A stretch of 64,000 nucleotides of DNA from Escherichia coli. GTDB taxonomy: Bacteria > Pseudomonadota > Gammaproteobacteria > Enterobacterales > Enterobacteriaceae. The notes under the pieces were generated by a model. It saw only the letters and a list, made by a program, of their open reading frames with translations, did no database searches and was not told the DNA's origin. The stretch is taken from assembly GCF_030013205.1 (NCBI RefSeq), contig NZ_CP122648.1. One strand, 5' to 3'. The translations under genes were made by a program, and so were the position numbers. Of this stretch, positions 2,203-64,000 are shown piece by piece. The first letter of the stretch is position 1. Every line of letters begins with the position of its first letter.

Positions 2203-4392
2203 ATGTTTGTGGAGCATAACCTGATAAAAAATATCAAGATATTCACACTAGCGTTTACGCTCACCGTGGTACTTATTCAGCTATCCCGTTTTATTTCGCC
2301 ACTTGCCATTATCCATTCCAGTTATATCTTTCTGGCGTGGATGCCACTGTGCGTAATGCTGTCAATCTTGTTTATCTTTGGCTGGCGCGGTGTCGTTCCC
2401 GTTTTATGCGGGATGTTTTGCACCAATCTGTGGAACTTTCATCTCTCTTTTTTACAGACCGCGGTCATGCTCGGCAGCCAGACGTTTGTTGTGTTGTGTG
2501 CCTGCGCAATATTACGCTGGCAGCTGGGGACGCGTTGGCGTTATGGATTGACCAGCCGATATGTCTGGCAACGTCTTTTCTGGCTTGGTTTGGTGACGCC
2601 GATCGGCATCAAATGCAGCATGTATCTTGTGGGGAGCTTTTTTGATTTCCCGCTAAAGATATCCACCTTTTTCGGCGATGCGGATGCCATTTTCACAGTC
2701 GTTGATTTACTAAGCCTTTTCACCGCTGTGCTGATTTACAACATGCTTTTCTACTATCTCACTCGCATGATTGTAAGTCCCCACTTTGCGCAGATATTGT
2801 GGCGCAGGGATATCGCTCCGTCGTTGAGCAAAGAGAAACGCGCATTTACCTTAAGCTGGCTGGCAGCTCTTAGCGTGCTGCTACTTCTGATGTGCACACC
2901 GTATGAGAATGACTTTATTGCCGGTTACCTGGTACCTGTTTTCTTTATCATCTTTACCCTCGGTGTCGGTAAGCTTCGCTATCCGTTTTTAAATCTCACC
3001 TGGGCTGTTTCAACGCTTTGCCTGCTGAACTACAACCAGAACTTTTTGCAAGGGGTACTAACCGAATATTCGCTGGCATTTATTCTCGCGGTGCTGATTT
3101 CCTTTAGTGTTTGCCTGCTCTATATGGTGCGCATTTATCATCGCAGTGAATGGCTTAATCGCCGCTGGCATTTGCAGGCGCTGACCGATCCGTTAACGCT
3201 CCTACCCAACTTTCGTGCGTTAGAACAAGCGCCGGAGCAAGAGGCGGGCAAGAGTTTTTGCTGCCTGCGCATTGATAATCTTGAGTTTATGAGTCGTCAT
3301 TACGGCTTAATGATGCGCGTTCACTGTATCCGATCAATTTACCGTACGCTGCTGCCGTTGATGCAGGAAAACGAAAAGTTGTATCAATTGCCGGGTAGTG
3401 AACTGCTGTTAGTGCTGAGTGGACCGGAAACGGAAGGGCGACTCCAGCATATGGTTAACATCCTGAATAGTCGGCAAATTCACTGGAACAATACCGGGCT
3501 GGATATGGGCTATGGTGCTGCCTGGGGGCGTTTTGATGGAAATCAGGAAACCCTGCAACCCTTGTTGGGGCAGTTAAGCTGGCTGGCGGAGCAATCCTGC
3601 GCACATCACCATGTGCTGGCGCTGGATAGCAGAGAGGAGATGGTTTCCGGGCAGACCACTAAACAGGTGCTATTGCTGAATACCATTCGTACGGCGTTAG
3701 ATCAGGGTGATTTGCTGCTCTACGCCCAGCCAATTCGCAACAAAGAGGGTGAAGGTTATGATGAGATCCTCGCGCGACTGAAATATGACGGCGGCATTAT
3801 GACCCCGGATAAGTTTCTGCCCCTTATTGCTCAGTTTAACCTTAGCGCGCGTTTTGATTTGCAAGTGCTGGAATCCTTGTTGAAGTGGCTGGCAACACAC
3901 CCTTGCGACAAAAAAGGTCCGCGCTTTTCAGTCAATTTAATGCCGCTCACGCTGCTGCAAAAGAATATTGCCGGGCGGATTATTCGTCTGTTTAAGCGTT
4001 ATCACATCTCCCCGCAGGCGGTCATTCTTGAGATCACCGAGGAGCAGGCGTTTTCTAACGCAGAAAGCAGCATGTACAACATCGAGCAACTGCATAAGTT
4101 TGGCTTCCGGATTGCGATTGATGACTTTGGCACCGGCTATGCCAACTACGAACGGTTAAAGCGTTTGCAGGCTGATATCATCAAAATTGATGGTGTCTTT
4201 GTGAAAGATATCGTCACGAATACGCTGGATGCGATGATTGTGAGATCAATTACCGATCTGGCGAAAGCGAAGTCATTGAGTGTGGTCGCGGAGTTTGTCG
4301 AGACGCAACAGCAGCAGGCGCTATTGCATAAGCTCGGGGTGCAATATCTGCAAGGGTATTTGATTGGTCGCCCGCAGCCATTAGCTGATTAA
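2203..4392 (+). CDS. yfeA: Membrane c-di-GMP phosphodiesterase (MASE1 - degenerate GGDEF - EAL), YfeA/PdeA
   Basis: ORF 2143-4392; start placed at internal Met (MFVEHNL) giving 729 aa as remembered for K-12; multi-TM N-terminus, EAL-type C-terminus. Confidence 0.85.
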   Translation: MFVEHNLIKNIKIFTLAFTLTVVLIQLSRFISPLAIIHSSYIFLAWMPLCVMLSILFIFGWRGVVPVLCGMFCTNLWNFHLSFLQTAVMLGSQTFVVLCACAILRWQLGTRWRYGLTSRYVWQRLFWLGLVTPIGIKCSMYLVGSFFDFPLKISTFFGDADAIFTVVDLLSLFTAVLIYNMLFYYLTRMIVSPHFAQILWRRDIAPSLSKEKRAFTLSWLAALSVLLLLMCTPYENDFIAGYLVPVFFIIFTLGVGKLRYPFLNLTWAVSTLCLLNYNQNFLQGVLTEYSLAFILAVLISFSVCLLYMVRIYHRSEWLNRRWHLQALTDPLTLLPNFRALEQAPEQEAGKSFCCLRIDNLEFMSRHYGLMMRVHCIRSIYRTLLPLMQENEKLYQLPGSELLLVLSGPETEGRLQHMVNILNSRQIHWNNTGLDMGYGAAWGRFDGNQETLQPLLGQLSWLAEQSCAHHHVLALDSREEMVSGQTTKQVLLLNTIRTALDQGDLLLYAQPIRNKEGEGYDEILARLKYDGGIMTPDKFLPLIAQFNLSARFDLQVLESLLKWLATHPCDKKGPRFSVNLMPLTLLQKNIAGRIIRLFKRYHISPQAVILEITEEQAFSNAESSMYNIEQLHKFGFRIAIDDFGTGYANYERLKRLQADIIKIDGVFVKDIVTNTLDAMIVRSITDLAKAKSLSVVAEFVETQQQQALLHKLGVQYLQGYLIGRPQPLAD

Positions 4393-42385: not shown

Positions 42386-43819
42386 TTAACCCAGTTGCCA
42401 GAGTGCTCCATGTTGCAGCACAGCCACTCCGTGGGAGGCATAGAGCGACAGTTCCCGTTCTTCTGGCTGCGGATATATTCGGCTACTCATCACCGCCTCC
42501 CCGTCGTTAATAAATACTTCCACGGATGATGTATCGATAAATATCCTTAGGGCGAGCATGTCACCCTGCGGGAGGGGAATACTACGGTAGCCATCTAAAT
42601 TCTCGTGTGGGTAATACCGCCACAAAACAAGTCGCTCAGATTGGTTATCAATATACAGCCGCATTCCAGTGCCGAGCTGTAATCCGTAATGTTCGGCATC
42701 ACTGTTCTTCAGCGCCCACTGCAACTGAATCTCAACTGCTTGCGCGTTTTCCTGCAAAACATATTTATTGCTGATTGTGCGGGGAGAGATAGATTGATGC
42801 TGCTGGCGTAACGACTCAGCTTCGTGTACCGGGCGTTGTAGAAGTTTGCCATTGCTCTCTGATAGCTCGCGCGCCAGCGTCATGCAGCCTGCCCAGCCTT
42901 CACGTTTTGAGGGCATTGGCGATTCCCACATATCCATCCAGCCGATAACAATACGCCGACCATCCTTCGCTAAAAAGCTTTGTGGTGCATAAAAGTCATG
43001 CCCGTTATCAAGTTCAGTAAAATGCCCGGATTGTGCAAAAAGTCGTCCTGGCGACCACATTCCGGGTATTACGCCACTTTGAAAGCGATTTCGGTAACTG
43101 TATCCCTCGGCATTCATTCCCTGCGGGGAAAACATCAGATAATGCTGATCGCCAAGGCTGAAAAAGTCCGGACATTCCCACATATAGCTTTCACCCGCAT
43201 CAGCGTGGGCCAGTACGCGATCGAAGGTCCATTCACGCAATGAACTGCCGCGATAAAGCAGGATCTGCCCCGTGTTGCCTGGATCTTTCGCCCCGACAAC
43301 CATCCACCATGTGTCGGCTTCACGCCACACTTTAGGATCGCGGAAGTGCATGATTCCTTCTGGTGGAGTGAGGATCACACCCTGTTTCTCGAAATGAATA
43401 CCATCCCGACTGGTAGCCAGACATTGTACTTCGCGAATTGCATCGTCATTACCTGCACCATCGAGCCAGACGTGTCCGGTGTAGATAAGTGAGAGGACAC
43501 CATTGTCATCGACAGCACTACCTGAAAAACACCCGTCTTTGTCATTCTCGTCTCCTGGCGCTAGCGCAATAGGCTCATGCTGCCAGTGGATCATATCGTC
43601 GCTGGTGGCATGTCCCCAGTGCATTGGCCCCCAGTGTTCGCTCATCGGGTGATGTTGATAAAACGCGTGATAACGATCGTTAAACCAGATCAGGCCGTTT
43701 GGATCGTTCATCCACCCGGCAGGAGGCGCGAGGTGAAAATGGGGATAGAAAGTGTTACCTCGGCGCTCGTGAAGTTTTGCTAGTGCGTTTTGCGCCGCAT
43801 GTAATCGAGATTGCGTCAT
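42386..43819 (-). CDS. cscA: Sucrose-6-phosphate hydrolase / invertase CscA (GH32)
   Basis: GH32 motifs (HLAPPAGWMNDPNG; FRDP; WECPD). Confidence 0.88.
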   Translation of the reverse strand: MTQSRLHAAQNALAKLHERRGNTFYPHFHLAPPAGWMNDPNGLIWFNDRYHAFYQHHPMSEHWGPMHWGHATSDDMIHWQHEPIALAPGDENDKDGCFSGSAVDDNGVLSLIYTGHVWLDGAGNDDAIREVQCLATSRDGIHFEKQGVILTPPEGIMHFRDPKVWREADTWWMVVGAKDPGNTGQILLYRGSSLREWTFDRVLAHADAGESYMWECPDFFSLGDQHYLMFSPQGMNAEGYSYRNRFQSGVIPGMWSPGRLFAQSGHFTELDNGHDFYAPQSFLAKDGRRIVIGWMDMWESPMPSKREGWAGCMTLARELSESNGKLLQRPVHEAESLRQQHQSISPRTISNKYVLQENAQAVEIQLQWALKNSDAEHYGLQLGTGMRLYIDNQSERLVLWRYYPHENLDGYRSIPLPQGDMLALRIFIDTSSVEVFINDGEAVMSSRIYPQPEERELSLYASHGVAVLQHGALWQLG

Positions 43820-58650: not shown

Positions 58651-59808
58651 TCACTCCACCTTTTCATCAATCCAGTCCGCCCACCACTGCATCATCTCCC
58701 GGCGCTTATCGAGATACTGAGCATGGTTGTAAATCCCGCGCACAGATCCGCCGTTGGCATGTGCCAGTTGCACTTCAATAGCATCAGCAGGCCATTCGTG
58801 CTCGTTCATAATCGTGCTGAATTCATGCCTGAATCCGTGACCGCTTTCCAGACCTTCATAGCCGATTTGTTTGATCACAAGCAGTACAGCGTTCTCGCAG
58901 ATTGGCTTCTTCTTATCGTTGCGCCCGGCAAAAACAAACTCTGATACTGGTTTAGTGATTGAGCTTAGTGTAGTGAGAAGTTCAACCACCTGGTCTGACA
59001 TCGGGACAACATGAATTTTGCGTCCCTTCATCACACTGGCGTCGATGGTGATAATCCTGTTTTCAAAATCGACGTTCTTCCATAGCATGGAACGAAGCTC
59101 TTTTGTTCTTAGGGCTGTGTAGCGTAAAACTTTGGTCGCAATGAGCGATACGATACTTCCTGAAAATGTTGCAAGTGCTTTGTTGAATGCCGGGATCTGG
59201 TCGGCAGGTAAAAACGGGAAGTTCTTCTTGCGGTATCCCTTCATGGCGTCAGCAAGGTCAGGTGCCGGGTTATATTTAGCCCTACCAGTAACAATAGCGT
59301 AACGGAAAACCTCGCCGCATCTTCTGCGTGCTTTGTTGGCTCGCTCCATTGCACCGCGATCTTCAAATCTGCGGATTACTTCCAGAAGTTGCATCGGCTC
59401 AATATCCTGAATTTCAAGGCCGCCGATGATAGGTAAAATGTCGTCATCAAACATTTTTGCAAGTTCATTTGCATAGCCTACTGACCAGACTTGCTTCTTG
59501 TGCTCGTACCATTCCTTGTAAATGGCGCTAAAGGAATTGTTGTTAGACGAAGCCTTTTTCGCCTTTACCGGATCGATGCCAACCGAGATGTCTTTCCTCG
59601 CAGTCCATGCTTTATCCCTTGCCTCTTGCAAAGTCATAAGCGGATATTTTCCGACGGTCAGGATTTTCTCCTTACCGTCAATCTTGTAGCGAAGCTGCCA
59701 TACCTTTTTCCCTGATACAGGGACATAAAGATACAGGCCATTACCATCGAGTAGGCGGTATGGTTTTTCTTTCGGCTTTGCTGCTTCAATCTGCTTAACG
59801 GTGAGCAT
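58651..59808 (-). CDS. intS: P4-type tyrosine integrase (IntS-like, N-terminal DUF4102 arm-binding domain)
   Basis: MLTVKQIEAAKPKEKPYRLLDGNGLYLYVPVSGKKVWQLRYKIDGKEKILTVGKYP…; catalytic R…HxxR…Y region near the C-terminus; start at internal Met of ORF 58651-59844. Confidence 0.88.
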   Translation of the reverse strand: MLTVKQIEAAKPKEKPYRLLDGNGLYLYVPVSGKKVWQLRYKIDGKEKILTVGKYPLMTLQEARDKAWTARKDISVGIDPVKAKKASSNNNSFSAIYKEWYEHKKQVWSVGYANELAKMFDDDILPIIGGLEIQDIEPMQLLEVIRRFEDRGAMERANKARRRCGEVFRYAIVTGRAKYNPAPDLADAMKGYRKKNFPFLPADQIPAFNKALATFSGSIVSLIATKVLRYTALRTKELRSMLWKNVDFENRIITIDASVMKGRKIHVVPMSDQVVELLTTLSSITKPVSEFVFAGRNDKKKPICENAVLLVIKQIGYEGLESGHGFRHEFSTIMNEHEWPADAIEVQLAHANGGSVRGIYNHAQYLDKRREMMQWWADWIDEKVE

Positions 59809-59969
59809 GGGTAAAAATCCGGTGGGTAAAATTATTTTATCCACTTTTTACCCGTCATGGAGTGCGGCTGTCAACGATCTGACGCGAACCATGACGAACC
59901 GTGAATATACGGAAGGCTTGATATTCAGGGTATTTTGCGGACTGGTACGGATGGGAGCGAACTGATAAA

Positions 59970-60205: not shown

Positions 60206-60454
60206 ATGCGCACACAGGTTGTATTGCAAAAATGGGGTAACAGCATTGCCCTTCGACTAACGGGAAACCTTAAAACCGTTCCGGGTTTTTCAGTGGGTGA
60301 TATCGTCAACGTTGAAATTAGTGAAAAAGGGCTTTTTGTAGAAAAGCCTGCACGCCGTCGCCTGAGTGAAGCCGAACTACTCGCCGGGATAACGCCAGTT
60401 ACAGCGCACGCTGACGAAATTGCCACCCCATTCAATGAGGAGGTTGATTACTGA
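60206..60454 (+). CDS. MazE/PemI-like antitoxin (AbrB/SpoVT-type swapped-hairpin)
   Basis: 82 aa, MRTQVVLQKWGNSIALRLTGNLKTVPGFSVGDIVNVEISEKGLFVEKP…; RBS aggag; stop overlaps the toxin start (TGATG). Confidence 0.75.
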   Translation: MRTQVVLQKWGNSIALRLTGNLKTVPGFSVGDIVNVEISEKGLFVEKPARRRLSEAELLAGITPVTAHADEIATPFNEEVDY

Positions 60455-60798
60455 TGTTTGTACCTAAGCGTGGTGATATTTGCTGGCTGGATTTTGAGCC
60501 GCAGAAAGGAAAAGAGATCGGAAAGTATCGCCCGGCACTCATACTATCCCATGAGCAATATAACCGACTCACCGGGCTTGTCATATGCTGCCCCATAAGT
60601 ACGAGCATACGAAATGCTCCCACAGAAGTTCCGGTAACAAATCTGGACGCCCCCAGCGTGGTAGCAACCACACTCATTCAAACCCTTGACTGGCGTCAGC
60701 GGAAAGCGCGCTTAATCACAGAGGCAGAAGATGGGGTATTTAATGATGTGCTTGAAAGAGTCATTACTCTGATTGGTGGAGAGCATCTGCTTAAGTAA
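60454..60798 (+). CDS. MazF/PemK-family endoribonuclease toxin
   Basis: 114 aa, MFVPKRGDICWLDFEPQKGKEIGKYRPALILSHEQYNRLTGLVICCPISTS…; translationally coupled to the upstream antitoxin. Confidence 0.75.
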   Translation: MFVPKRGDICWLDFEPQKGKEIGKYRPALILSHEQYNRLTGLVICCPISTSIRNAPTEVPVTNLDAPSVVATTLIQTLDWRQRKARLITEAEDGVFNDVLERVITLIGGEHLLK

Positions 60799-60841: not shown

Positions 60842-62113
60842 CTATTCTTTCCAGTCAATCCCATCCAGTAAGCACCCTGCCTCATATTGCCCCACCACCC
60901 AGTCAAGGTTACAGGACTCATAGAACGCGAGGCGATTATACTGAGGCTCGTTTTTTACCAGGCCACGAACGGAACCACGCTGCCAGTACAGACACAGATT
61001 GGCAAGAGGTGTGATCAATACAGCATTGTCCGGGAAAAATGGAACGGTCACAGCCGGGAGATTCCCCAGAACGGGATTTTTAATGATTTCCTCGTTAAGC
61101 AAAATTTCCTGATTCATCTGCGATGGATCAAGACGGTTTATCAAAGGCCATTGTTTACGGACCAGCGTATTGTGACTGCATACGGCCACAATGCCTTCCT
61201 GCCACTGTTCATCAATCATGGATTGCCAGGCATCCAGAACGAGCGCATCTATCGTATGGTGTGTACCGCGTATATTACTTTTCGGTGATGAGACAGAAAG
61301 GCCGCTGATAACCCTTCCCGCCGCTTCATTTCGAAACTTCTGCAACCAGCCCACGCCGCAATCGTCACGCCCCGGATATGTTCCGGGATCTGATACATCG
61401 GCATAGTGCGTACCGTTAAAACCAATCTGAATCAAATCCAGCCATTTCTGGCGTTCAAAAGCAGCCCGGGCGCTTCCTTCAAGACCGTTTGCGGATGCGT
61501 GAGCATCAACATTGTCGTAGTTCAGCGCAAAATCAAAATTAACCTGCTCGCAGCGGTAGCCCCTTGAAACCAGTGAATGCGCCTGTAGTGGCGAGCGGCG
61601 CTCGTGAGGTGGCGATGTACGTGCTAACGGCCCCGAAGCGTCTACCAGCACAACCTGACCTGATATATCCGTAACAGGCACGGGAGTTATTTCAGCAAGG
61701 AAATTTGCCTGCCATCCACTGGCAAGCGTTGCACTCTGGCGGGGGACGGGTTCAACTTCTGACGAATAGCGCGCAGTGTCACCGGAAAAGTGCAAATCCT
61801 TCGGATGCTTTCCGGTTATCGACTCGATAGCGCAATTGAAAACCATCTGAGACTGTTGATTTCGTTGTGATACAACAGAATCAGCAGTGCAATTATAACG
61901 CTCAATGCCGTCGTTATTACCCCCACCGCTTGCAGTATGCAGGGTGTGAAGCTCAAGCTCACGCTCCAGTTTTTGATATTCATTGTCCAGCGCGCGACGC
62001 GTCTCATCGCTTATGCTTGCTGTGTTTGCTTTCAGGCGATTCCGGGACATTAATCCCCTGAGTCGGCTCACTATATCAGCGCCGTGCAAATGTGGAGTAT
62101 TCAGACCGCCCAT
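60842..62113 (-). CDS. P2-family major capsid protein-like (GpN-like), tentative
   Basis: Segments (…CEQVNFDF…, …IGFNG…GVGWLQKFRNEA…, …LGNLPAVTVPFFPDNAVLITPLANL…YESCNLDWVVGQYEAGCL…) resemble remembered P2 GpN; start placed at the Met whose ATG overlaps the upstream gene's stop; listed ORF extends to 62254. Confidence 0.5.
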   Translation of the reverse strand: MGGLNTPHLHGADIVSRLRGLMSRNRLKANTASISDETRRALDNEYQKLERELELHTLHTASGGGNNDGIERYNCTADSVVSQRNQQSQMVFNCAIESITGKHPKDLHFSGDTARYSSEVEPVPRQSATLASGWQANFLAEITPVPVTDISGQVVLVDASGPLARTSPPHERRSPLQAHSLVSRGYRCEQVNFDFALNYDNVDAHASANGLEGSARAAFERQKWLDLIQIGFNGTHYADVSDPGTYPGRDDCGVGWLQKFRNEAAGRVISGLSVSSPKSNIRGTHHTIDALVLDAWQSMIDEQWQEGIVAVCSHNTLVRKQWPLINRLDPSQMNQEILLNEEIIKNPVLGNLPAVTVPFFPDNAVLITPLANLCLYWQRGSVRGLVKNEPQYNRLAFYESCNLDWVVGQYEAGCLLDGIDWKE

Positions 62114-62823
62114 TACTGCCACCCCCGGCAGAGTTCTCTGCCCTCCGCAAGGTCGCGCATTTTTTCTGGATTCTGTCGCGCCGCGCTCCATTGTACAGGT
62201 GAAGGGGCGCTCCTGATTGCGCAGCTTACTGAATCCGGGAGTTTCTCCGGGCAATAACGCAGCGGGCTGGAGGTGTCGCTTTCGGTATCGTTAATCCGGC
62301 CGCGAATCATCCCGACACTTTCAGCAGTATCTGCCGCTTTCAGTGTTTCGCATATTTTCTTTTCTGCGTTATACAGCGGCTGGCCAAGTAGCTCACATAA
62401 ACCACGAATCAATAACAGAACAGGGGTCAGCTCGTTAATCAGTTCGGGAAGTGCTTTTGCAAATATCTCTGCCCGCAACTTATTATCAATGCTTTCGTAA
62501 GCACAACCAGCCTCTGCCGCGTTATAACGACACTCCAGTAGCCTGATGCGCGCTTCATCATGCAATACCCGCAGACGCTCAAGATTTTCTCGCGCCACAC
62601 CCGCCTGAATGGATAATTTCGCGGAGGCTTCCGTTTTTACGCCCAGCGCAGACAGGATTGAGTTCTGCCAGTCACGATCGAGAGATTCCAGCTCCCCTTT
62701 CGTCTGTTCGATAGTCGCTTCCAGATTGGTGATTAATGATTCCTGTTCACTGAGTTTTGCCATGGCTGTATCAAACTGTGCTTTACATACCTGATGTTCG
62801 GCGCTTGCCTGAGTTATATCCAT
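62113..62823 (-). CDS. Coiled-coil phage morphogenesis protein (scaffold/Sid-like), tentative
   Basis: 236 aa, helical N-terminus; immediately upstream of and translationally coupled (ATGA) to the capsid-like gene. Confidence 0.35.
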   Translation of the reverse strand: MDITQASAEHQVCKAQFDTAMAKLSEQESLITNLEATIEQTKGELESLDRDWQNSILSALGVKTEASAKLSIQAGVARENLERLRVLHDEARIRLLECRYNAAEAGCAYESIDNKLRAEIFAKALPELINELTPVLLLIRGLCELLGQPLYNAEKKICETLKAADTAESVGMIRGRINDTESDTSSPLRYCPEKLPDSVSCAIRSAPSPVQWSAARQNPEKMRDLAEGRELCRGWQ

Positions 62824-62949
62824 TATTTGCTCCTGTAATACATTTTTTTACTTACGCCGATTTTTTCCATATTGCGTAATACATTCCAGCCGATTTTGTT
62901 CTCGTAATACGCTCACAATACTGTTGTATTACGCTTTCTTATATCGCGG
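62824..62949. promoter_or_regulatory. Divergent intergenic control region with repeated GTAATACATT / CGTAATAC motifs
   Basis: gtaatacatt at 62835-62844 and 62876-62885; cgtaatac at 62903-62910; gtattacg at 62926-62933; gccgatttt repeated twice. Confidence 0.5.
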
Positions 62950-63222
62950 GTGTTAAATCCCGGCATAAACAATCAGGGAGGCAACACGATGAAAAAACAA
63001 AAGAAAATGCGATGCGTATTACGCTGTATTCGTATCCCGCACGAAATCGACCATAAAATAAATCAGATATGTGAGGACAGAGAGATGAACTACTCCCAGT
63101 GCGTCAGAATGTTTATCAGTCAGGGAATTAAGGCCGGGGAAAAGCAGGAAGAAGACCACAACGGGCGCAATGTAGCGGGGGATGTGTGGGCCTGGGCAAA
63201 TGACCAGAACCACACGACGTAA
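62950..63222 (+). CDS. Small ribbon-helix-helix-like DNA-binding protein, tentative
   Basis: …MRCVLRCIRIPHEIDHKINQICEDREMNYSQCVRMFISQGIKAG… fits a beta-strand then helix-helix RHH pattern; true start may be the Met at 62989. Confidence 0.4.
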   Translation: MLNPGINNQGGNTMKKQKKMRCVLRCIRIPHEIDHKINQICEDREMNYSQCVRMFISQGIKAGEKQEEDHNGRNVAGDVWAWANDQNHTT

Positions 63223-63272
63223 TACAGAAATAACGCAGCCGGTCACACTCGCTGGCTGTGTTATACAAATCA

Positions 63273-63455
63273 CTATGAAGTTTTCGACTTCCTGCGCTTA
63301 GTAATGCGTACAAACGACTCAAGCGTACAAAAACAAGCCCCACACTCAATATTGTTGCACTGGTAATACGTTCTGTAGATGTTTTGTTCGTGTTCTTCCA
63401 ACGAACGACCACGGGTGCGAGCTGAAGCGCCACAGGCCGGGCAAGGGAAAGACAT
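63273..63455 (-). CDS. ogr: Ogr/Delta-family zinc-finger late-gene activator
   Basis: 60 aa, CPACG…YYQCNNIECGACFCTLESFVR matches the Ogr C2C2 pattern. Confidence 0.7.
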   Translation of the reverse strand: MSFPCPACGASARTRGRSLEEHEQNIYRTYYQCNNIECGACFCTLESFVRITKRRKSKTS

Positions 63456-63745
63456 ATCGCGCTCCTCTTACTGGCGTGAAATTTAACCTATTATATCTTC
63501 CGTTGCCTCCTCTGGCTGTATCAAATAAATCCGCGATGGTCGCTGCGTATTACGCGCAGACACACCGTTCCCATGCTCACTCCTCACATTCCCCGTATCA
63601 ATTCTCTCTTGCCGTAAGAACGGCTCTGGCTGGCGATAAAACTAACCCGGTCAGGCATTCCCGCAGTCTTTAGCGAAAGATGTAATTTACCCCCTGAAAC
63701 GCGGGCTGTTCCCCCGTCACCTGCGCGCGAAAAACTCACCGTTTT

Positions 63746-63844
63746 TTGTGCACGCACGAAATCGCCCTCCGGGCGCGCCAGTACCGGGCCGGATGGGCAA
63801 AAAGTTACTCTAAAAAATTGTGCAAATTTGTGCACTTTTGTGCA
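63746..63844. repeat. Phased TTGTGCA direct repeats (4 copies, last 3 spaced 10 bp)
   Basis: ttgtgca at 63746-63752, 63818-63824, 63828-63834 and 63838-63844. Confidence 0.5.
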
Positions 63845-64000
63845 GATGAACAACAGCGTCAAAAAGAGTGCTTTTGAGAGATTTTTTATGGCAACTGCGC
63901 CGCGTGTATTACGTTTTTACCATCCCCGCCGCGCATGTACATACTTCATTTTTCTGCCAAACAACAGGGCAACTCCCCGTGACTGACAGCCCCAAAAAAT

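Follow-up and report, generated by a model that had tools for sequence, protein, structure and literature searches.

A 64,000-nucleotide stretch of the Escherichia coli contig NZ_CP122648.1 (RefSeq assembly GCF_030013205.1), referred to here as the window, carries near its right-hand end a short DNA sequence that recurs within about 1.1 kb (62824-63913), around a gene for a small ribbon-helix-helix (RHH)-like protein and a gene for an ogr/delta-like zinc-finger protein. The locus raises the question of what this repeat is for and which protein binds it. The region is the late-gene control module of a P4-like satellite of ~12 kb located at argW, and, judging from sequence comparisons, we hold it somewhat better than an even proposition that the array is a set of operators through which the RHH protein represses the late module and autoregulates its own gene. 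The components of the module needed for the argument are as follows.

62113-62823, minus strand: sid-like gene (236 aa), first gene of the operon proposed to be controlled
60842-62113, minus strand: P2-family major capsid gene, the second in that operon (423 aa; product extended at its N-terminus)
62894-62921, minus strand: Ogr/delta-box-like dyad, TGT-N12-AGA then ACAAAA (or TGT-N15-ACA)
62989-63222, plus strand: RHH-like gene (77 aa, RefSeq CDS), encoding the proposed binder
63273-63455, minus strand: ogr/delta-like zinc-finger gene (60 aa, CX2C...CX4C)
63685-63845, non-coding: cos-like packaging region, 78-82% identity to P88-like Peduoviridae DNA

The repeat had been described in a first-pass annotation of the window as an 8-mer, CGTAATAC, and its reverse complement, GTATTACG, with at least six copies. 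All six are found at the coordinates given there and the lower bound holds, a seventh copy at 63218-63225 having been overlooked. The window contains eight copies in total against 1.16 expected from shuffles, and 0 of 100 shuffles reach eight; seven of the eight lie within 62875-63913 and the sole remaining copy is at 43066. The extended form that had been reported at 62835 and 62876, GTAATACATT, is indeed present at both positions and nowhere else in the window. The 8-mer is enriched, but the unit of repetition is YGTAWTACR, a palindrome of 9 bp whose central base is free, present in eight to nine copies: eight of its ten window copies fall in the array (62834, 62875, 62903, 62925, 63015, 63218, 63546 and 63905), and a half-matching GGTAATACG lies additionally at 63362. 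Its 7-bp core, GTAWTAC, occurs nine times inside the 1.09 kb of 62824-63913 and eight times in the other 62.9 kb of the window, so that the motif is rare elsewhere when counted across all 64 kb. The expectation for the region is 0.14 cores (Poisson P 4.6e-14), and dinucleotide shuffles of the array region yield a mean of 0.15 cores and a maximum of 2. Since the G+C content of the array region (47.2%) matches that of the window (47.4%), composition does not explain the enrichment. The context common to the palindrome copies extends over only 9-13 bases and their flanks differ, which rules against their being pieces of a longer repeat. An RNA element was likewise rejected, as Rfam gives no match in the region and a 9-bp palindrome with a 1-nt center is unable to form a hairpin.

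As had been noted, the copies cluster both upstream of the ogr-like gene and where the morphogenetic operon and the RHH gene diverge. Individually, the sites are the following.

62834-62842, site S0: TGTAATACA, a perfect palindrome adjoining the sid-like Shine-Dalgarno sequence AGGAGC (minus strand, 62829-62834)
62875-62883, site A: CGTAATACA, in the core of the sid-like late promoter
62903-62911, site B: CGTAATACG, a perfect palindrome within the spacer of the Ogr/delta box
62925-62933, site C: TGTATTACG, adjoining the distal arm of the Ogr box
63015-63023, site D: CGTATTACG, a perfect palindrome inside the RHH codons Cys-Val-Leu-Arg (GTA TTA CGC)
63218-63226, site E: CGTAATACA, overlapping the RHH stop codon and absent from the first-pass list
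63546-63554, site F: CGTATTACG, a perfect palindrome 50 nt upstream of a TATAAT before ogr (63487-63501 region)
63905-63913, site G: TGTATTACG, on the far side of cos

Relatives of the element were collected in order to compare these positions; the window element is denoted WIN and the fetched relative loci carry L numbers. By word-based search, both the RHH family and the Sid-like family prove very narrow; divergent relatives were found via capsid homologs (42-52% identity) and by searching exhaustively with the Sid-like protein, with an RHH alignment search adding three useful loci among genome contigs and one new type among viral contigs. One locus, L002, was discarded as a divergent relative, being a noisy assembly of the same element. 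The gene order ogr, RHH (on the opposite strand), sid-like, capsid is found in all fetched loci that reach far enough upstream, at identities to the window proteins of 24-34% for Sid and 32-36% for the full-length RHH protein (32-33%, with capsids ~50% identical, in L005, L015, L014 and L018). In these last four loci, which come from other samples and one of which has a Salmonella-type capsid, TGTAWTACA is over-represented in the same 1.1-1.4 kb, with 5-8 perfect copies each.

The positions of the sites are conserved in these four homologous elements, a comparison that the first-pass annotation had proposed as a check. The distances from the sid start common to the window and the four relatives are ~-20, -60 to -77, -110 to -127, ~-200, ~-365 to -400, ~-750 and ~-1100. 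The spacing from the second to the third site (A to C) is 49-50 bp in all five GTAWTAC-type elements and the intragenic site is separated from the third by 86-90 bp, and in an intergenic alignment with a mean column identity of 55% the sites stand out as conserved blocks. Counterparts of S0 lie 19-25 nt ahead of the sid start in L005, L014, L016 and L006; the position of site A holds TGTATTACA in L005, L015 and L014, TGTCTTACA in L018 and TGTCTGACA in L007; a counterpart of F lies 80-120 nt upstream of ogr in the relatives; and counterparts of G lie ~1100 nt upstream of sid in L005, L015 and L014. At site D, the Val-Leu pair is encoded by GTA-TTA (two rare codons) in 4 of 4 elements with an intact site (WIN, L005, L015 and L014), by GTA-TTG in L018 and by GTT-TTG in L006, which has the same amino acids and another palindrome type. 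At shorter evolutionary range, among eight close E. coli copies of the element, variation affects 2 of the 81 columns within sites and 114 of the 662 non-coding columns outside them (Fisher P 1e-4), a difference that suggests purifying selection on the sites; as the sid-RHH spacer is almost invariant, this comparison is driven by the ogr-cos part. Site E is lost (CATAATACA) in two of the eight copies and is thus the least constrained. We also observe that the ogr-like gene of L014 (~3370-3549) has an in-frame stop after six codons, reflecting a pseudogene or a sequencing error, and that all eight perfect palindromes of this locus are intact.

Other relatives carry other palindromes at these same positions. 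The E. coli locus L007 has three perfect copies of TGTCTGACA, L016 has three of TGTTATACA, and the Klebsiella loci L006 and L031 have TGTTATACA together with TGTATGACA.

What the sites overlie can be judged from the genes on either side. The 236-aa product of the gene described earlier as scaffold-like has no PHROG, NCBIfam or Pfam family match. However, a profile built from 12 members of its family aligns with P4 Sid (hhalign probability 67%, E 5e-5) and gives no alignment with Psu, and its AlphaFold (AF2) model (pLDDT 92.8) retrieves P4 Sid (PDB chain 7jw1_E) as the best of 350,542 PDB chains over a full-length alignment. By profile and model comparison the protein is a homolog of P4 Sid, so that the term scaffold stands and can be made more exact, namely an external size-determining scaffold, and its promoter is therefore the counterpart of P4 Psid. 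The dyad of the window aligns with TTTTGTTGT-N12-ACAACAAAA of L005, L015, L014 and L018, between the second and third sites. The exact form TGT-N12-ACA, which is the consensus of Ogr-dependent P2 late promoters (PMC3931495), is found in these four loci and in L016, and has no match in the window island. The box also resembles GTTGTTGT-N12-ACAA ahead of P4 sid, and the ogr/delta-like protein, whose counterparts in relatives match Pfam Ogr_Delta, is the likely activator of the sid-like promoter. In P2, the Ogr box is centered at -55 of the late promoter. If the same geometry applies here, the conserved block GAAAGATA would lie at -10, site A at ~-30 to -22 and site C at ~-80 to -72. The spacer of the window box has been turned into a perfect palindrome, site B, and occupancy of that site would put a protein in direct competition with the activator; this site is peculiar to the window lineage, the spacer sequence of the relatives being unrelated at that point. 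By homology, site C is probably the -35 region of the RHH promoter, and in L005 and L015 a consensus scan places a sigma-70-like RHH promoter with its -35 hexamer, ATTACA, inside the third site.

The first-pass annotation had left the binding protein unassigned, and the adjacent RHH protein can now be proposed, since its family, its position and its β-strand track the type of palindrome. Its start had been placed at a GTG at 62950; the ATG at 62989 is likelier, given a GGGAGG Shine-Dalgarno sequence and the RefSeq call. The AF2 model computed from 11 homologs (pLDDT 71) has helices at residues 18-31 and 35-53 following a conserved xVLRxxRIPH, and an extra C-terminal helix with a conserved Trp is present. 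Foldseek matches to this model are nearly all RHH proteins (CopA-SO, Arc, VapB, CdbA, ORF56, CopG, NikA and AmrZ), and searching PDB sequences with the RHH profile yielded nothing meaningful. The profile matches, though weak, are likewise exclusively to RHH families, and we regard an RHH fold as likely for the 77-aa protein. In all relatives its gene is solitary, between a divergent sid-like gene and a convergent ogr. It is not a type II antitoxin, as no toxin gene adjoins it and the MazEF pair at 60206-60798 is separate.

The strand of the RHH protein changes along with the palindrome: VLR[C/T/S]xRIP goes with GTAWTAC, IRRTIRIP with GTCTGAC and [V/T]LRAxRIP with GTTATAC. R12, R15 and P17 of the strand are invariant and so are the outer GT...AC of every palindrome, and the one invariance fits the other. 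The 9-bp, odd-centered palindromes would also fit a dimer with a two-fold axis. Because the RHH gene is always adjacent to the array, has a site on its probable promoter and another in its first codons, and changes its strand with the palindrome, we consider its product the probable binder of the palindromes.

The operator reading stands on the enrichment of the repeat, its palindromic nature, its positional conservation, the change of palindrome type and the homology of the promoter, all of which are observed; which protein binds, that binding represses rather than activates, and what would relieve it, we infer. Repression is favored because of the positions of A, B, S0 and D. In the mechanism that we propose, RHH dimers would occupy A, B, C, S0 and D. 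A dimer on A would exclude RNA polymerase from the sid-capsid promoter, one on B would block the Ogr/delta activator box, and one on C would block the promoter of the RHH gene itself and so lead to autoregulation, while F, G and E may contribute to repressing ogr or to cooperative looping. The bound protein would keep the sid-capsid operon, and probably ogr too, silent, and the operon would fire once an Ogr-type activator of the helper or of the satellite outcompetes the RHH protein or the latter is inactivated. The array had been taken for the operators of a lysis-lysogeny or satellite-helper switch. It does behave as an operator array, but it probably controls the late module and not an immunity switch, because P4-type immunity, based on the C4 antisense RNA, lies ~6 kb away in the left operon (by homology, outside the window).

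Several observations weigh against this reading. No sigma-70-like promoter passes the scan in the window region, and hence the positions of the sites relative to transcription starts rest on homology to the geometry of P2/P4 late promoters. The spacings of A to B and of B to C (28 and 22 bp) do not fit a simple helical repeat. The RHH, Ogr, Sid and capsid genes are inherited as one module, which confounds the covariation of palindrome and RHH protein with Ogr; the sample for this covariation comprises ~4 independent lineages, and pairwise identity matrices of RHH and Ogr are uninformative for separating the two. The palindromes and the Ogr box, moreover, have TGT/ACA ends in common. As regards the fold, the Pfam matches of the RHH-like protein are sub-threshold (CopG_antitoxin, E 0.094; RelB, E 0.25), those in NCBIfam (RelB/DinJ, VapB and ORF56, E 0.004-0.008) fall far below the cut-offs, the Foldseek matches reach a TM score of up to 0.79 on the target but with E ~1, and in the monomer model a short helix takes the place of the expected strand. 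Finally, part of the variable non-coding columns in the comparison of E. coli copies may be hypervariable stretches or alignment ends.

The RHH protein could bind the sites and yet serve as a co-activator or an architectural factor for the late promoter and for packaging instead of as a repressor. Some RHH proteins do activate transcription or bend DNA, for example AmrZ and TraY, and such a role would suit sites C, F and G, given their location ahead of promoters or close to cos (~-76 and -67 under the geometry adopted above). Sites A, B, S0 and D, on the other hand, fall in the promoter core, the activator box, the leader with its Shine-Dalgarno sequence and the coding region, which are typical positions for repression, and most RHH regulators are autorepressors. 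We therefore regard a co-activating or architectural role as unlikely.

A similarly low probability attaches to another binder altogether, be it an AlpA/Vis-like regulator, a host factor, or a helper-phage regulator by which the satellite is sensed or commandeered. P4 Vis, a member of the AlpA family, acts on late promoters. Between WIN and L005, the AlpA-like proteins share only 24% identity (across 70% of their length) although both elements carry one and the same palindrome, and the gene lies ~7 kb away with no sites near it. A regulator of the helper gains some room from the fact that a single P88-like genome was examined as helper; in that genome, the GTAWTAC cores (2 in 35.8 kb) are not at promoters. 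Against a host factor, WIN-type elements and L007 both reside in E. coli and have different palindromes, and elements of this species that differ in palindrome share an insertion site beside hpt. Two further candidates were set aside: the second recombinase of the element (int2) fits worse as a binder, being absent from L005, L015 and L018, which keep the sites, and mimicry of a helper is rejected in view of P88, which lacks the palindrome and has neither of its two cores at a promoter.

It is less probable again that the palindromes constitute additional activator sites, of a second class, for the satellite's own Ogr/delta-like protein (63273-63455). Their ends, TGT...ACA or CGT...ACG, do recall the half-sites of the Ogr box, ogr is in the module of every relative, and P4 Psid bears a second TGT-N12-ACA-like element (compare the additional delta sites at P4 promoters). 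But the relatives have a separate canonical TGT-N12-ACA box between the palindromes, and the window palindromes are mostly CGT...ACG, whereas the box keeps TGT. The inner three bases, which would be the Ogr spacer, are the strictest within an element and differ between elements. A spacing of 3 bp in place of 12 bp would require a different dimer geometry, and the promoter core, the leader and the coding region are not positions for an activator. A chance or compositional cluster without function, which has the short length of the motif as the sole point in its favor, is very improbable, being refuted by a Poisson P of ~5e-14, the failure of every shuffle to reach 3 copies, the retention of site positions among elements with diverged flanks and the filling of the same positions by other perfect palindromes in other relatives.

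With the RHH-repressor reading thus preferred, we turn to the element that carries the array. The window ends inside it, and a complete copy, 100% identical, is found in E. coli ETEC1748 (locus L001). Starting from tRNA-Arg, L001 encodes a tyrosine integrase, an AlpA-like helix-turn-helix (HTH) protein, an Icd-like open reading frame (ORF) with C4 antisense RNA and isrK, four small ORFs, an 889-aa toprim primase and a second P2-type tyrosine recombinase, followed by GGTTACA iterons, a cos-like stretch, the ogr/delta-like gene, the RHH gene, the sid-like gene, the capsid gene and mazEF. The P4-like core set is therefore present, comprising Int, the AlpA-like HTH protein, Icd-like with C4 RNA, toprim primase, ogr/delta-like protein, Sid homolog and a cos-like match; psu was not found in the satellite, which has a gpN-like capsid gene instead. 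The counterpart of the cos stretch in P88-like (Xuanwuvirus) DNA lies at genome or record ends or just upstream of the portal gene, and this match points to a helper of the P88/P2 type. The element occurs in 56 of 5426 complete E. coli genomes (~1%), many of them enterotoxigenic and Shiga toxin-producing (ETEC/STEC) strains from pigs and cattle. Literature searches returned no paper on capsid-encoding P4-like satellites or on an RHH regulator in P4-like satellites, and the capsid-carrying family seems undescribed in the searchable literature.

The capsid protein has ~118 extra N-terminal residues without a match to phage capsid profiles, and its homologs at 42-52% identity, which by name come from E. 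coli, Salmonella, Klebsiella, Erwinia and Pectobacterium, form a group apart from the capsids of true P2-like phages (≤41%, over shorter coverage). Behind the capsid gene lies one further feature.

60206-60798: MazEF pair after the capsid gene

Each relative has a different toxin-antitoxin pair in this slot (MazEF, RelB/ParE, Gp49/HTH or HicAB; window 60206-60798, L005 10450-11033, L014 6099-6654, L015 6137-6974, L018 6474-7066), which looks like a cargo hotspot. Within the cos region (63685-63845) are a TGTGCA(A/C)(A/T)TT motif in tandem and a short palindrome, GTGCAAATTTGTGCAC. Just past the window end (L001 17250-17570), dense GGTTACA/TGTAACC iterons in both orientations lie between cos and the second recombinase gene; they resemble the P4 ori/crr repeats bound by the alpha primase, and L007 has AGGTGTAACA iterons at the same place. 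The second recombinase (L001 17832-18833, ~330 aa, Int_N and Phage_integrase), encoded after the primase gene, is also present in L006, L007, L014 and L016 and not in L005, L015 or L018, and L016 has Cox-like and C-repressor-like genes in addition. Several relatives are located beside hpt instead of a tRNA gene, which suggests alternative integration modules. Within the Icd-like ORF, L001 22725-22932 contains the C4 antisense RNA (79.7 bits), isrK and a weak c4-a1b1 target, which amounts to RNA immunity of the P4/P1 type, and an isolated copy of CGTAATAC lies at L001 22825, 13 nt upstream of C4. The closest relative of the window Sid-like protein (P0137, 40% identity) is encoded at L013 1291-2806, where two Ogr_Delta ORFs immediately precede its gene and the 3.2-kb contig holds no capsid gene, a layout nearer to the classical sid-delta-psu of P4. 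In the window, 56802-59844 holds a tandem prophage remnant with IntS, GtrA, a DUF2142 protein and a glycosyltransferase (an O-antigen modification module), to the left of which are P22-like genes interrupted by IS1; remnant and satellite both use the argW region.

In P4, the textbook satellite, late-gene control is ascribed solely to Ogr/delta-type activators, and immunity based on RNA acts elsewhere. If the reading given here is true, a protein-operator layer on the sid promoter would alter this accepted picture of late control, as would a sub-family with a capsid of its own, and the two together would reveal how capsid production is timed in satellites and cross-talk avoided. Direct tests are feasible, with a protein of 77 aa, a control region of 200 bp and specificity variants provided by nature. 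The element also bears toxin-antitoxin cargo. More speculatively, and with rather more doubt than belief, we envisage an undescribed P4-like branch that builds heads from its own gpN-type capsid and Sid homolog, with the module gated by a dedicated RHH repressor; operator specificity (GTAWTAC, GTCTGAC, GTTATAC) would have diversified like phage immunity types, thereby avoiding cross-regulation among satellites and helpers, and the Trp-containing C-terminal helix of the RHH protein would be the point at which the helper is sensed.

Among known systems, the control of phage-inducible islands by master repressors (Stl in SaPIs; compare AlpA in PICIs) is similar in that a satellite regulator encoded between divergent units would silence helper-exploiting genes until a helper is active. 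The protein families and operators are unrelated, the left (replication) operon of the present satellite has RNA immunity of the P4 type, and we know of no helper anti-repressor in the present case. Arc and Mnt of phage P22 (immI) and the CopG-type plasmid repressors provide a second precedent, namely a small RHH-like protein beside a divergent promoter region, with short symmetric operators over promoter elements, one of them on the promoter of the RHH gene itself, and CopA(SO), Arc, CopG and ORF56 are the nearest structural matches of the satellite protein. It differs from them in having no significant sequence similarity, in its 8-9 single palindromes dispersed over 1.1 kb in place of one or two composite operators, in the extra C-terminal helix with its conserved Trp and in its target, a satellite late operon. 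P4 Psid itself shares with the present locus a promoter before a sid homolog, a dyad of the TTGTTGT-N12-ACAA type and an ogr/delta-like gene in the same module, and the satellite as a whole resembles P4 in its integrase, AlpA, primase, C4 RNA and cos. P4, however, has neither a protein operator array nor an RHH gene at Psid, and its operon continues into delta-psu where that of the satellite carries a capsid gene. The box of the satellite is, in addition, flanked (and in the window element invaded) by 9-bp palindromes, and in the window it has one mismatch (AGA) or a 15-bp spacer. The parts are known: RHH autorepressors acting on short symmetric operators (Arc, Mnt, CopG), and late promoters of P2 and P4 that depend on Ogr/delta. 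No description of their combination, in which capsid-encoding P4-like satellites would add protein operators of varying specificity to a Psid-type promoter, was found in the searchable literature.

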